12,461 nt of DNA. It comes from a virus. The notes beneath the pieces were generated by a model, which saw only the letters and a list, made by a program, of their open reading frames with translations, made no database searches and was not told the origin of the DNA. Both the position numbers and the translations under genes were made by a program. The stretch lies in IMG/VR virus record IMGVR_UViG_3300029039_000040; one strand, given 5' to 3'. Each line of letters opens with the position of its first letter. Within the stretch, counting starts at the first letter, position 1. Below are positions 1 through 12,461 of this stretch, one piece after another.

Positions 1-237
1 ACAGTAGGCCGTATTTTAGGCTTTGACGTTGTAGTAGACGACTACGTAGCCGATAACGTTTGTTACTTTGGTAACTTTAGCTACTTAGGTTACAACCTGC
101 CTAACGGCATTGCAGTAGAAAGCTCTACACAGTCAAGCTTTAAGAGTGGCAAGGTTGACTATAGAGGCATGGCTATTGCTGATACGCAGGTTATCGTACC
201 AGAGGCATTTATTAAGCTTAGCGTAGCTACTGCCTAA
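1..237 (+). CDS. Major capsid protein, HK97 fold, C-terminal 78 codons. This is the continuation of the ORF starting at 11370 across the circular junction.
   Basis: Frame 1 is open from nt 1 to TAA at 235-237. Positions 1..99 are identical to 12363..12461 and in frame with ORF 11370..12461 (1092 nt = 364 codons). The C-terminus GRILGFDVVVDDYVADNVCYFGNFSYLGYNLPNGIAVE... is typical of HK97-family capsid proteins. Confidence 0.85.
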   Translation, partial: TVGRILGFDVVVDDYVADNVCYFGNFSYLGYNLPNGIAVESSTQSSFKSGKVDYRGMAIADTQVIVPEAFIKLSVATA

Positions 238-255
238 TAGAGAGGAGGCTAAAGC

Positions 256-543
256 ATGCTAACAATAGAAAAGGCCAGGGAATGGCTAAGACTGGACAAT
301 AGCGACAACGACGCTATTATTAGCGGGCTTATGGACAGTGCTGTAGAGTATATTACTCTTACTACAGGCCTAAGCGAGGCAGACCAGGTAAAAAGCACTT
401 TAGCCGAAACAGCCCAGAAATTTTTACTCACGCTGTGGTATGACCCGCAGACAGCGGAAACAGACCGCCTACAGCGAACTATAGACAATTTGCTTAAGGC
501 TATCACGACAACGCAGTTAGGTAATACTACAAACGGAGGCTAA
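256..543 (+). CDS. Phage gp6-like head-tail connector (adaptor) protein
   Basis: 95 aa. N-terminus LTIEKAREWLRLDNSDNDAIISGLMDSAVEYITLTTG ... LLTLWYD matches the gp6-like head-tail connector family (LEEVKxHLRIDHDDEDxLI...AxEYIE..TG...LLVxHWYENRE). RBS agaggaggct sits 6 nt upstream. The gene follows the capsid gene directly. Confidence 0.75.
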   Translation: MLTIEKAREWLRLDNSDNDAIISGLMDSAVEYITLTTGLSEADQVKSTLAETAQKFLLTLWYDPQTAETDRLQRTIDNLLKAITTTQLGNTTNGG

Positions 544-546
544 CTT

Positions 547-837
547 ATGAAAGACTATGCAAAAGGGTTTTATACAAGTAAAGCCTGGAGGGACACCCAA
601 AAGGCCTACATGCTTAGCAAAAACTATATATGTGAGCGTTGCGGGCGTCCTGCCTGCATAGTCCACCATAAGAAATATATAACGCCTTATAACATTACAG
701 ACCCTAATATAACGCTTAACTGGGATAACTTAGAGGCATTGTGTAGGACATGCCACCAGAACGAGCATTTTATTACAGGGCGTGTAACAGCTAAAGGCGT
801 GGGTTTTGATGAAGATGGCAACTTAATAAAGCTATAG
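547..837 (+). CDS. HNH endonuclease (phage packaging-associated HNH)
   Basis: 96 aa with FYTSKAWRDTQKAYMLSKNYICERCG...CIVHHKKYI...NLEALCRTCHQNEH. The Cx2C...HH...Cx2CH HNH motif and FYxSxxW leader are typical of HNH proteins encoded next to terS/terL in cos phages. RBS GGAGG upstream. Confidence 0.88.
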   Translation: MKDYAKGFYTSKAWRDTQKAYMLSKNYICERCGRPACIVHHKKYITPYNITDPNITLNWDNLEALCRTCHQNEHFITGRVTAKGVGFDEDGNLIKL

Positions 838-10623: not shown

Positions 10624-10786
10624 CTATTATTACACGAGAAAACAGCGAACTATGGGCGGGTTTTATCATATTTGCCCGTACTGTGGGGCGAGTTTAGACC
10701 CTGGCGAGCGTTGCGATTGCCTAGAGGAAAAAGCAGAGCAGAAAAAGAGCCAGGAAACGCCAAAGAAAGAAAAGAGGGCGAGCTAA
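10616..10786 (+). CDS. Small Zn-ribbon protein (56 aa, CPYCG...CDC), hypothetical
   Basis: Its start overlaps the portal stop (ATGAGTAA) and its stop overlaps the protease start (TAATG). Motifs Cx2C-x11-CxC. The alternative start at 10592 lies inside the portal gene. Confidence 0.45.
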   Translation: MSNYYYTRKQRTMGGFYHICPYCGASLDPGERCDCLEEKAEQKKSQETPKKEKRAS

Positions 10787-11367
10787 TGAAAGAAATTAGA
10801 ACAGCGGAAATAAGAGCCCAGGCACCAACGGCAGAGGGTGCTAACGGCCTTATTATAGAGGGCGTGGCTATTGTGTTTGACACGCCTACAACGATACACG
10901 ACCCAGCAGGGGACTATATCGAAGTAATTAAAAGGGGAGCACTGGACAAGGCAGACCTTAGCGACAGCAGGCTACTTTATAACCATGACTTTAGCAGGGT
11001 GCCACTGGCCAGAACGCCTAAAACTATGCAGTTTGAAGTAACCCAGGCAGGGCTACAGCTTAGGGCAGAGTTACCAAACACAGAAGAGGCTAAAACAGTC
11101 CACGAGGCGGTAAGGCGTGGAGACCTAACAGGCATGAGCTTTGCTTTTACGGTGCCTAAAGGTGGCGACAGTTACGACCCAGCTACTAACACCCGTACTA
11201 TTAACCGTATAGACAAGGTTTACGAGGTTAGCGTAGTACCTTACCCAGCCTATGCTACTACAAGCGTGGAGGCCAGAGCCGAACGCCAGGAACGCATAGA
11301 GAACTACAAAGCGTTACAGAACGCAAAAATACTTTGTAACAAAATACTACTTAATGGAGGTAAATAA
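10786..11367 (+). CDS. Prohead maturation protease, HK97 family (peptidase S78/U35)
   Basis: 194 aa starting MKEIRTAEIRAQ, with RBS aaagaggg 9 nt upstream. GLIIEGVAIVFDTPTTIHDPAGDYIEVIKRGAL...LLYNHDFSRVPLART...LTGMSFAFTV matches the HK97 prohead protease consensus (I.GYA..F.....D..G..E.I..GAF...LL.NHD....PLG....L.ED..GL.....GD..G.SFGF). The 10672 start has no RBS. Confidence 0.85.
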   Translation: MKEIRTAEIRAQAPTAEGANGLIIEGVAIVFDTPTTIHDPAGDYIEVIKRGALDKADLSDSRLLYNHDFSRVPLARTPKTMQFEVTQAGLQLRAELPNTEEAKTVHEAVRRGDLTGMSFAFTVPKGGDSYDPATNTRTINRIDKVYEVSVVPYPAYATTSVEARAERQERIENYKALQNAKILCNKILLNGGK

Positions 11368-11369
11368 AA

Positions 11370-12461
11370 ATGAACTTTAAAACAGTTGCAGAGGCTTTTA
11401 ACTACTGGAACGGCAAAACCGTTAAAGAAATCGAACAGAGAGCCCAGGAAATCAAGGGCACAATCGAAACAGACCCAAACGTAGACATTAAGAGCCTTAA
11501 TATCGAACTTACAGGACTTTCACAGGCAAAAGAAAACGTACAGGAAAAGGAAACACAGACAGACCAGGAGGCTAGAGGCTTTAACCCTATTACTGGGGCT
11601 AACTTTGGAGCGGGAAGTTATGAGGCTACTCACGGCGACGTATACGCCAGCAAAGAGTATAGAAGTGCGTTCTATAAATCTCTTATGGGCAAAGAACTTA
11701 ACGCAGTAGAAAAGCAGACACTAAACCGTGCTATCGAAATGGAAAAAAGAGCAGACGCTTACACTACAAGCGGTAATACTCCTGTACTTATTCCAACAAC
11801 AACATTAAACGAAATCATTAGCAAGGCGAGAGCAGAGGGGGGCGTTATTGGCATTGCAAGAGCATTTAACATGCCTACTAAAATTGCTATCCCTGTGGCT
11901 ACTCCTGCGTCCCGTGCGTCATGGAATACAGAAGGGCAGGCAGTAGAAAGCGAAAAGCCAACTATTGCACAGGTTACTTTTGACGCCTACGAAATTATTA
12001 AAGTATTTAGCATTAGTGCTAAGGTGCGTACTATGAGTATTGACGCTTTCGAGGCTTATCTAGCCGACGAGTTACAGCGTTGCGTATTTGAAACTATCGC
12101 AGACAGCCTTATTAATGGTACAGGTACTAACCAGGGTACAGGCCTTGAGCACGGCGTAACATGGGACACTACAAACAGTGTAACAGCTACAAAGGCTAAG
12201 GGCATTACATATAAGGACGTTGTAGCTACTGTGGCTAAGCTTAAGAGAGGCTACAGCCGTGGGGCTAAGTGGGTGCTTAATAACGCTACACTATATAACG
12301 CTTTTTACGGCATGGTAGACGATAACGGCAAGCCTATCTTTATTGCAGACCCTAAAGACGACACAGTAGGCCGTATTTTAGGCTTTGACGTTGTAGTAGA
12401 CGACTACGTAGCCGATAACGTTTGTTACTTTGGTAACTTTAGCTACTTAGGTTACAACCTG
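11370..12461 (+). CDS. Major capsid protein, HK97 fold, N-terminal 364 codons including the delta/scaffolding domain. It continues at 1..237 across the circular junction, for a total of about 409 aa.
   Basis: RBS aatggaggtaaataaaa-ATG. The first ~100 aa form a charged coiled-coil delta domain (KTVKEIEQRAQEIKGTIETDPN...KENVQEKETQTDQEA). The body carries HK97-like motifs. The ORF is open to the window end, and its last 99 nt equal window positions 1..99. Confidence 0.9.
   Translation, partial: MNFKTVAEAFNYWNGKTVKEIEQRAQEIKGTIETDPNVDIKSLNIELTGLSQAKENVQEKETQTDQEARGFNPITGANFGAGSYEATHGDVYASKEYRSAFYKSLMGKELNAVEKQTLNRAIEMEKRADAYTTSGNTPVLIPTTTLNEIISKARAEGGVIGIARAFNMPTKIAIPVATPASRASWNTEGQAVESEKPTIAQVTFDAYEIIKVFSISAKVRTMSIDAFEAYLADELQRCVFETIADSLINGTGTNQGTGLEHGVTWDTTNSVTATKAKGITYKDVVATVAKLKRGYSRGAKWVLNNATLYNAFYGMVDDNGKPIFIADPKDDTVGRILGFDVVVDDYVADNVCYFGNFSYLGYNL
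12363..12461. repeat. 99-nt terminal redundancy identical to 1..99 (circular-closure overlap)
   Basis: Exact identity read directly from the sequence. It lies inside the capsid ORF, which reads through in frame, so it reflects circular topology rather than an att or DTR element. Confidence 0.9.

Follow-up and report, generated by a model that had tools for sequence, protein, structure and literature searches.

Phage-inducible chromosomal islands of the capsid-forming kind (cf-PICIs) are phage satellites that, as experiments have shown, build T=4 heads and acquire their tails from phages (10.1101/2022.09.08.507074; 10.1101/2025.02.11.637232); one of them, EcCIEDL933, fits 15.5 kb into a T=4 head of 47.5 nm, and cf-PICIs also release tail-less heads. 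Three of 969 cfPICIs lay outside chromosomes, which was passed without comment (de Sousa et al., PMC10085698), and a 2025 review lists only one satellite shown to be a plasmid, an inovirus satellite, alongside a very large share of plasmids for which no transfer mechanism is known (PMC12282955). In 2025/26, a capsid-forming satellite of plasmid type, element TG54, was reported in the marine Vibrio crassostreae and named a phage-inducible satellite-plasmid (cf-PISP) (10.1101/2025.10.10.681744; PMC13230959). It measures 15.8 kb and carries parA, repA, a ProQ/FinO-like gene, a tyrosine recombinase, and a Stl-like regulator; its authors, who propose that it is inherited as a plasmid and spreads in its own heads on helper tails, report relatives in Vibrio only and do not present a transfer experiment (PMC13230959). 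Here, we analyze a 12,461-nucleotide stretch of DNA, IMG/VR record IMGVR_UViG_3300029039_000040 (the window, by which we mean the whole stretch), and argue that the element it holds, a circle from human-gut metagenomes, is probably (at roughly 70%) a circular, low-copy plasmid whose host belongs to the Bacillota, and probably to the clostridia, and at the same time a capsid-forming phage satellite borrowing its tails.

The original prediction, made from the letters of the window, knew of no described capsid-forming satellite kept as a plasmid-like replicon. TG54 contradicts it on this point: the concept is already published, and the window represents a separate, abundant Bacillota lineage with a different replicon and regulatory layout. 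Gram-positive or gut equivalents of satellite-plasmids were not found in our literature searches. Like TG54, the window element is an extrachromosomal circle (at assembly level) with ParA, an initiator, and the full cf-PICI head and packaging set, and it has neither tail genes nor a canonical integrase. It differs in its phylum, the TG54 capsid grouping with gammaproteobacterial cf-PICIs and the window capsid having its nearest relatives in Bacillota, a separation that we draw by description; it further differs in its size of 12.4 kb, in a Rep of the pi/RepE class from an unclassified family, in its own primase-helicase, in a ribbon-helix-helix (RHH) partner of ParA, and in the absence of a recombinase.

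Firmicutes group-1 cf-PICIs (the Bacillus/Clostridium/Staphylococcus type; 10.1101/2022.09.08.507074; PMC10085698) have the same head and packaging set in the same order, portal-protease-capsid and then connector, HNH endonuclease, small terminase (TerS), large terminase (TerL), and head closure, without tail or holin genes and within 12 to 15 kb. Unlike these islands, the window has no integrase, no attachment (att) sites, and no HTH_3 (Stl/CI-like) repressor; their D5/DUF927 primase block is replaced by ParA-RHH-HTH_17-Rep-iterons-primpol/DnaB, and the element was found only as a self-closing circle.

Bacillota phage-plasmids likewise join an extrachromosomal replicon to HK97-type head and terminase genes, and the TerL proteins of 32-36-kb Clostridioides difficile and 44-55-kb Bacillus cereus group phage-plasmids are 47 to 49% identical to that of the window. 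They are, however, complete 32-55-kb phages with tail and lysis genes on the plasmid, whereas the window is about one-third of that size, head-only, and free of both gene classes. Satellite P4 can persist as an autonomous plasmid using its own primase-helicase, and the window resembles this state as a satellite with its own primase-helicase for which autonomous replication is proposed; unlike the window, P4 has no capsid, portal, or terminase, remodels P2 capsids, has an integrase, and is nearly always integrated. Compared with iteron plasmids (R6K pi, mini-F RepE) that have type Ib partition (TP228 ParF-ParG, pSM19035 delta-omega), the window shows no detectable sequence similarity to Rep_3 (one match, E 0.009), its replicon brings its own primpol-helicase, and its cargo is a virion head module. 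As portrayed in the papers that cite it (PMC12282955, PMC13230959), pDolos of Shewanella is a plasmid satellite of an inovirus and is thus also both an autonomous plasmid and a phage satellite, but it exploits a filamentous phage and, by these accounts, encodes no capsid machinery. Mycobacterial EPIP satellites were set aside as a different thing, and so were the gut “mini” HK97 entities of <11.6 kb, which are without portal and terminase.

A self-closing circle that recurs across gut metagenomes

The first 99 bases of the window are 100% identical to its last 99 (12363-12461), which leaves a unit of 12,362 bp, and in an open reading frame (ORF) survey of the window all credible genes lie on the plus strand.

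1-99, no strand: assembly overlap closing the 12,362-bp circle, exact copy of 12363-12461

The circle of about 12.36 kb in the original prediction is confirmed by this exact closure and by the independent assembly of the same circle in many gut metagenomes. In other samples, the element appears as contigs of 12,358 to 12,361 bp with differing start points, whose terminal overlaps (119, 55, and 30 nt) are the k-mer of the assembler. Since overlap lengths equal the assembler k-mer, the 99-nt overlap is the assembly signature of a circle or concatemer, and we rejected a biological direct terminal repeat. The exact TerL was found on at least 17 contigs, 14 of them 10 to 20 kb long. Seven of these contigs were fetched in full (L002-L008) and measure 12.4 to 12.9 kb with varied start points; five of the seven self-close with overlaps that match the assembler k-mer. 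More broadly, the window proteins sit in 90%-identity clusters of 180 to 270 members (28 for the more variable Rep), with single protein variants on up to 233 contigs, the longest of which never exceeds about 25 kb. No chromosomal flank was found on several hundred contigs carrying window proteins, all ≤ ~25 kb, and no long chromosomal contig occurs among the 180-270-member clusters (90% identity) or among 445 clusters of the Rep family. The varied start points and the lack of chromosomal flanks on any contig argue against a fragment of a larger prophage.

Terminal overlaps were present at 14 of the fetched loci (13 distinct contigs, with units of 12,358 to 14,160 bp), all of which are of ParA type, and on no integrase-type locus among those fetched. 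One of these circles comes from a cultured strain: contig 25 of Bacillus ectoiniformans DSM 28970, a separate contig, is a self-closing ParA-type element of 14,255 bp with a 95-nt overlap. Overall, the assemblies provide strong evidence for an episome, part of the signal possibly coming from packaged DNA.

Longer scaffolds do occur. The 21.7-kb contig of one relative (L103) is a perfect concatemer with a period of 13,707 bp and 0 mismatches over 6,809 nt, and other scaffolds of 20 to 25 kb join two related circles that share identical TerS-TerL-closure genes. Two of them (L001 1-9450; L105 1-7400) join the window element to a second, diverged circle that has another ParA, a 564-aa Rep-like protein with a winged helix-turn-helix (HTH), a GIY-YIG protein, and a portal 64% identical to that of the window, while its TerS-TerL-closure genes are 100% identical. 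Either the assembler made a chimera by way of the shared segment, or the cointegrate is real; under both readings, packaging genes are exchanged between coresident elements.

Used in full as a megablast query, the circle matched no PLSDB plasmid and no INPHARED phage. A scan of genome contigs with TerL returned only nine loci, all ≤74% identical, and the host of the exact element is not among them. GenBank already holds the sequence as proteins of an uncultured “Caudoviricetes sp.” or “Bacteriophage sp.” (DAM20721.1, DAM20725.1, UVY09744.1), entries for which we found no interpretation. No tRNA, no Rfam family, and, by PADLOC, no defense system was found in the window.

A complete head and packaging module without tail genes

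One part of the circle encodes heads and DNA packaging:

9421-10623, plus strand: portal protein, 400 aa (PF04860, 1e-54)
10592-10786, plus strand: small Cys-rich (CxxC...CxC) ORF, 64 aa (38-57% identical ORFs at the same place in eight relatives)
10786-11367, plus strand: HK97-type prohead serine protease, 193 aa (PF04586, 1.7e-33)
11370-12461, across the junction to 237, plus strand: HK97-fold major capsid protein, 409 aa (PF05065, 4.6e-39)
100-237, plus strand: 3' end of the capsid gene (ORF 11370-12599 on the doubled circle)
256-543, plus strand: gp6-type head-tail connector (adaptor), 95 aa (PF05135, 4e-7; TIGR01560, 7e-12)
547-837, plus strand: HNH endonuclease, 96 aa, of the kind that assists packaging in HK97-type cos systems (PF01844, 7.6e-9)
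838-1264, no strand: HNH-TerS noncoding spacer, candidate cos/packaging site (conserved DNA blocks)
1265-1612, plus strand: small terminase candidate, 115 aa (directly 5' of TerL; phrog_1066, 1e-35)
1616-3256, plus strand: large terminase, 546 aa (PF03354, 4e-37; PF20441, 1e-34)
3269-3706, plus strand: head-closure/completion protein of SPP1 gp16 type, 145 aa (PF05521, 8e-11; phrog_25; TIGR01563, 1e-5)
3820-3844, plus strand: intrinsic terminator-like hairpin at the end of the head/packaging operon (11-bp stem, then T-run)

Pfam and NCBIfam matches thus bear out the predicted portal, protease, HK97 capsid, gp6-like adaptor, HNH protein, TerL, and head closure. The predicted P27-family TerS stands as a TerS, by its position and its phrog_1066 match; the family assignment is weaker, with 23 of 38 orthologues weakly matching PF05119 Terminase_4 (P27-type; best E 4e-4) and the window copy giving no Pfam or NCBIfam match and nothing useful in a profile search against PDB sequences. 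The protease ORF is open from 10672, its start is probably 10786, and the 193-aa form is called in other assemblies. Within the capsid protein, the PF05065 match covers residues 139 to 405 only and a separate scaffold gene is absent; the N-terminal ~135 aa are probably a delta/scaffolding domain.

Between diverged elements, the HNH-TerS spacer retains stretches of identical DNA, with indels of 1 to 2 nt, and we consider it a likely cos region on this conservation. It is 427 nt long versus about 130 nt in integrase-type relatives, and its conserved blocks include a C-run and several short palindromes. An ORF within it (856-1074) was rejected as a gene: it has no family match in Pfam or PHROGs, and the spacer is conserved as noncoding DNA.

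Searches of the window with Pfam, PHROGs, NCBIfam, and PADLOC detected no gene for a tail, tape measure, baseplate, holin, endolysin, integrase, or CI-type repressor, and no recombinase is present in any window ORF or was detected by tblastn with the tyrosine recombinases of relatives; the absences claimed from the letters therefore survive a check by hidden Markov models. The coding capacity left unassigned amounts to ~245 aa in three small ORFs (109, 72, and 64 aa). The 64-aa Cys-rich ORF, without a family match in Pfam, PHROGs, or PADLOC, overlaps the portal gene at its 3' end and reaches up to the probable start of the protease; at this portal-protease position, ORFs of 69 to 78 aa occur in relatives, one of them with a PC4-domain match.

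Relationship to integrase-bearing satellites

The TerL of the window is 68 to 74% identical to those of ~80 IMG/VR and genome loci, but ≤55% identical to that of any INPHARED phage and <50% to that of any PLSDB plasmid. Similarly, its major capsid protein is 42 to 57% identical to those of satellite relatives and ≤31% to that of any phage. Relatives without ParA lie in chromosomes, for example next to guaA or next to phosphotransferase system (PTS) and glycosidase genes. Their left arm is that of a classical Gram-positive phage-inducible chromosomal island and consists of a tyrosine integrase of 387 to 406 aa, an HTH_3 repressor, and a primase of D5 or DUF927 type. The order of the head operon is common to the window, these integrase-type relatives, and the published Firmicutes group-1 cf-PICIs, while the integrase/repressor/primase block of the islands corresponds in the window to ParA-RHH-HTH-Rep-iterons-helicase. 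The complete head and packaging set without tail, lysis, or integrase genes, together with a TerL and a capsid protein closer to those of integrase-bearing islands than to those of phages, argues for a satellite. The swapped left block supports, in silico, the earlier proposal that partition and iteron replication take the place of integration.

We also compared the window with the 11-component cf-PICI model of SatelliteFinder (de Sousa et al. 2023, PMC10085698). Judged from our own profile and PDB matches, 10 of the 11 components are present, counting a candidate regulator, and only the integrase is missing. Those found comprise capsid, protease, and portal; connector and head closure; HNH, TerS (assigned on the position and profile matches given above), and TerL; a primase-replicase; and, as a candidate for the regulator (AlpA/MerR/Stl type), a 64-aa HTH_17/MerR-like protein that is not AlpA proper. 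Neither of the forbidden components (tail, holin) was found with Pfam, PHROGs, or NCBIfam. In place of an integrase and an att-flanked island, there is a closed circle without recombinase or chromosomal flanks.

In the TerL tree, the window falls inside a large clade made up of ParA-type elements only, and ParA-type elements also occur singly within the integrase-type Bacilli clade. The head proteins of the B. ectoiniformans circle are 78 to 92% identical to those of a chromosomal island of Niallia nealsonii. This scatter and this likeness indicate that, on one and the same head module, par/rep and int/repressor blocks have replaced each other on more than one occasion. The circles of the clade span a narrow size range of 12.4 to 14.2 kb, which fits unit-length packaging into a small head.

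A partition and iteron replicon in place of the integrase block

The remainder of the circle is a maintenance module:

3951-4280, plus strand: protein of 109 aa, or of 100 aa if an internal start is used, opening the maintenance operon, no family match
4293-5054, plus strand: ParA partition ATPase, 253 aa (PF13614, 3.6e-59; PF01656, 1e-25; NF041546 ParA_partition, 7.5e-30)
5054-5368, plus strand: ribbon-helix-helix ParA partner, 104 aa, ParG/omega-like centromere-binding candidate (phrog_582)
5384-5578, plus strand: HTH_17/excisionase-family DNA-binding protein, 64 aa, regulator candidate (PF12728, 5e-12; TIGR01764, 2e-8)
5591-6883, plus strand: predicted Rep initiator of the pi/RepE/RctB tandem winged-helix class, 430 aa (structure model; no Pfam family)
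6887-6975, no strand: four iterons (22/22/21-bp spacing; four matches, 0 expected by chance)
7030-7094, no strand: AT-rich dyad (7038-7054) and GC-rich nested hairpin (7066-7094), read from the sequence
7128-7346, plus strand: 72-aa protein 5' of the primase-helicase, no family match in Pfam, PHROGs, NCBIfam, or PADLOC
7350-9194, plus strand: NrS-1-type primase-polymerase fused to a DnaB-type helicase, 614 aa (PF22763, 5e-19; PF03796, 4e-28)

ParA and its RHH partner had been recognized in the original prediction, and both assignments hold. The RHH protein matches the Arc-like repressor family phrog_582 (3e-5) over its C-terminal residues 48 to 100, whereas a profile search against PDB sequences gave nothing useful; its start overlaps the parA stop, and the RHH-ParA adjacency is kept in relatives. 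The 64-aa protein had been called AlpA-like: an HTH is indeed present, but of the HTH_17/excisionase (MerR-like) family, outside the AlpA family proper. For the primase-helicase, the primpol and DnaB_C parts of the original description are correct, and the PriCT domain is absent; the N-terminal part is instead of NrS-1 type (PDB 6k9a NrS-1 primase, 7e-34, residues 9 to 269). The 614-aa protein also matches phrog_1829 (2e-79), PF22763 being the NrS-1 polymerase helix-bundle domain and PF03796 being DnaB_C.

The original prediction had overlooked the 430-aa ORF at 5591-6883, which a confident structure model identifies as an iteron-binding initiator of the pi/RepE/RctB class. This Rep has no Pfam, PHROG, NCBIfam, or PDB-sequence match and no tblastn match in plasmids, and among 30 diverse homologues Pfam returned one sub-threshold Rep3_N match (E 0.009). 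The family is large: it forms 445 clusters when grouped at 90% identity and has 660 representatives at the 50% level, and its link to the head module is not universal. Directly 3' of the gene lie the four iterons that had been seen in the letters: the 19-bp core AAATCACTCGGARGYGTTC occurs in four copies within 6891-6974 with a repeat unit of 22 bp, followed by the AT-rich dyad. The dyad/hairpin region is 100% conserved between Rep/iteron alleles and is a candidate for origin unwinding and loading. Its hairpin, GGCAGGGC...GCCCTGCC around GGGCTAAA/TTTAGCCC, sits after the dyad and before the 72-aa gene and may be a helicase/primase loading signal or a terminator. A tandem winged-helix initiator (by its model), adjoining ~22-bp direct repeats, and an AT-rich region, all of them present here, are the features of an iteron-type theta replicon (pi/RepE/RepA class). 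All ParA-type relatives examined have the same layout, a Rep homologue followed by two to five direct repeats with a 22-bp period and then by a primase-helicase, the helicase partner being of primpol type or of DnaG-Toprim type.

The maintenance module also varies where the head module does not. Between the window and five of the exact-TerL contigs (L003-L007), head, packaging, and helicase genes are ~100% identical, whereas identity drops to 87 to 97% across 3855-7150. The most diverged segment of this block is the C-terminal half of Rep, and the same three substitutions (CACTCGG to TACACAG) occur in all four iterons. Such covariation of the Rep C terminus and the iterons is expected of a specific Rep-iteron pair, and the variation looks like an exchanged allele of Rep/iteron specificity (incompatibility). 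The 109-aa protein, which has no match in Pfam, PHROGs, NCBIfam, or PADLOC, also differs among otherwise identical circles; in a 13.7-kb relative (L103 8037-8550; L104 5050-5563), its slot directly 5' of ParA is taken by a RelB/YoeB toxin-antitoxin pair, an addiction module of plasmid type.

Rep homologues also stand beside DnaB-type helicases in a plasmid-like contig without capsid genes from a Lachnospiraceae metagenome-assembled genome (MAG) and in an integrase-bearing island. Since the Rep-helicase pair occurs in these other element types, the replicon is a module in its own right. In both settings, a Rep core of ~350 aa (L100 660-2168; L109 9036-10079) lies next to DnaB_C/Toprim genes, and the MAG contig also encodes a 2,990-aa Cna_B adhesin.

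Shared palindromes in the regulatory spacers

Two regions stand out as candidates for transcriptional control:

3902-3953, plus strand: sigma-70-type promoter TTGACA-17-TATAAT (12/12 promoter match), then palindrome CATGTAAACATG (3942-3953)
9195-9420, plus strand: AT-rich (33% GC) region 5' of portal with two CATGTAAACA copies and promoter-like sites, candidate promoter/operator of the head operon

The promoter at 3902-3930 and the terminator at 3820-3844 separate the head and maintenance programs. The palindrome, CATGTAAACA(TG), occurs at 3942-3953, 9250-9259, 9367-9376, and, with one mismatch, 1229-1238, that is, only in three regulatory spacers: after the maintenance promoter, before portal (two copies), and before TerS. 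A search with the CATGTAAACATG form gave five matches versus 1.0 expected, and one of 200 shuffles reached five. Four relatives (L102, L059, L101, and L015) have TGTAnACA-type palindromes of their own at the same three positions. This pattern suggests that one element-encoded DNA-binding protein, RHH or HTH_17, binds a common operator, or that the sites form a dispersed centromere (parS). The omega protein of pSM19035 is a precedent for such a shared operator/dispersed-centromere role.

Proposed life cycle and alternative explanations

We propose that the promoter at 3902, which is strong and looks constitutive, would drive the 109-aa gene, ParA, RHH, HTH_17, and Rep. Rep would bind the four 22-bp iterons just 3' of its gene, open the adjoining AT-rich dyad, and recruit the element's own primase-polymerase/DnaB-type helicase, while ParA and RHH would segregate the copies as in type Ib partition systems. 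By homology with cf-PICIs, the operon from portal to head closure would be expressed when a coresident or infecting tailed phage is active. The capsid protein with its own delta domain would then build small procapsids, probably T=4, into which HNH, TerS, and TerL would package unit-length 12.4-kb DNA cut at a cos-type site in 838-1264. Connector and head-closure proteins would finish the neck and ready the portal for a phage-supplied tail, lysis and tail coming from the phage in the same cell or after release of tail-less heads. Through the CATGTAAACATG sites, RHH or HTH_17 may couple plasmid maintenance to head-gene control, or the sites may act as a dispersed centromere.

The episomal satellite is thus supported in silico, with tail piracy and the plasmid state inferred from genes and assemblies. 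Several observations weigh against it. Circularity in a De Bruijn assembly is given by concatemers, packaged or replicating, as well as by a plasmid. PLSDB does not contain the element, and one draft contig is the only cultured closed-plasmid-like record of the family. In addition, no Stl/CI-type helper sensor was found with Pfam or PHROGs, and the head-closure protein has no relative detectable by tblastn in the phage collection and gives no clue to the helper.

The missing sensor would also suit a helper-independent self-packaging plasmid, whose tail-less, DNA-filled heads would be made constitutively or under stress and which would be transferred by uptake of released heads or by a route like that of gene transfer agents, or whose heads would have a role other than transfer. 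In line with this idea, the head operon is equipped with a promoter-like region of its own whose operators are specific to the element, and tail-less heads are what cf-PICIs are known to release. Nevertheless, the element retains a gp6-type connector and an SPP1 gp16-type head closure, proteins whose only known role, in the SPP1 and HK97 necks, is to provide the docking face for a preassembled tail; moreover, it lacks a lysis gene that could release the heads, and no device for entry is known. We therefore regard self-packaging without a helper as unlikely. Still less likely is a phage-plasmid in decay, stripped of its tail and lysis genes and persisting only as a cryptic plasmid with relic head genes. 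While phage-plasmids with related TerL (~48%) are known from Clostridioides and the Bacillus cereus group, the head and packaging set is intact in all of its nine genes, the clade is deep (TerL down to 68%) with the same content and sizes of 12.4 to 14.2 kb, the head genes are ~100% conserved between samples while the maintenance block varies, and the nearest relatives are satellites, not phage-plasmids.

Two further explanations seem very improbable. A complete minimal virus would have to hide tail and lysis functions in the three small unassigned ORFs, whose ~245 aa are far below any known tail, and its connector and closure proteins are of the kind that long-tailed phages have; apart from those ORFs, only the GenBank labels “Caudoviricetes sp.” and “Bacteriophage sp.” point that way. 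The least credible explanation is that the window is an ordinary integrative cf-PICI in excised or packaged form, or an assembly artifact or fragment of a larger prophage. A closed circle leaves no outside for an integrase, no recombinase of any kind is present, and ParA, Rep, and iterons are; the same circle came from different assemblers and k-mers in many samples, with no long chromosomal contig. Packaged cf-PICI DNA is indeed common in virome data and some 20-25-kb scaffolds join two related elements, but each long scaffold is either a concatemer or a chimera made from related circles.

Beyond the plasmid-borne, tail-borrowing satellite that we prefer for the window, it is tempting to speculate, with somewhat less than even confidence, that gut and rumen Bacillota harbor a large unrecognized clade of plasmid-borne capsid-forming satellites. 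These would have arisen more than once by swapping the integrase-repressor block of a cf-PICI for a ParA-RHH-Rep-iteron replicon, would diversify by exchange of Rep/iteron alleles with heads kept identical, and would perhaps control their heads by their own plasmid regulator, not by a helper-sensing repressor. Self-encapsidation with borrowed tails would then be a common way for plasmids to move between Gram-positive gut bacteria.

Implications

If the inferred function is true, the same lifestyle exists independently in Gram-positives, where it is common in the human gut and widely diversified. A phage-tail-dependent route of transfer would be added for small Bacillota plasmids. As the tail-less heads of cf-PICIs can join tails from various phages, the borrowed tail could determine the host range. 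To a specialist, the idea itself is no longer surprising; its breadth in Bacillota would be. Circles filed as “Caudoviricetes sp.” would be miscounted as phages in virome surveys, and the element defines an unclassified Rep family paired with DnaB-type helicases. With its related circle, the cultured B. ectoiniformans DSM 28970 offers a tractable system.

Variable genes in related elements

Several ParA-type relatives carry a small tyrosine recombinase (182 to 190 aa; PF00589, 2e-25) between HNH and TerS (L015 6388-6960; L033 8775-9323; L102 4266-4817; L103 4612-5160), of which tblastn detected no remnant in the window. This enzyme, probably a resolvase of multimers, is reminiscent of the recombinase of Vibrio TG54. 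Integrase-type relatives have variable cargo 3' of the head-closure gene, a place where the window is almost without cargo; examples (L018 12002-13294; L043 10437-12528) are a protein of 430 aa whose repeat tail is rich in Gly/Ser/Thr and which has no Pfam match, and two ORFs of 336 and 364 aa.

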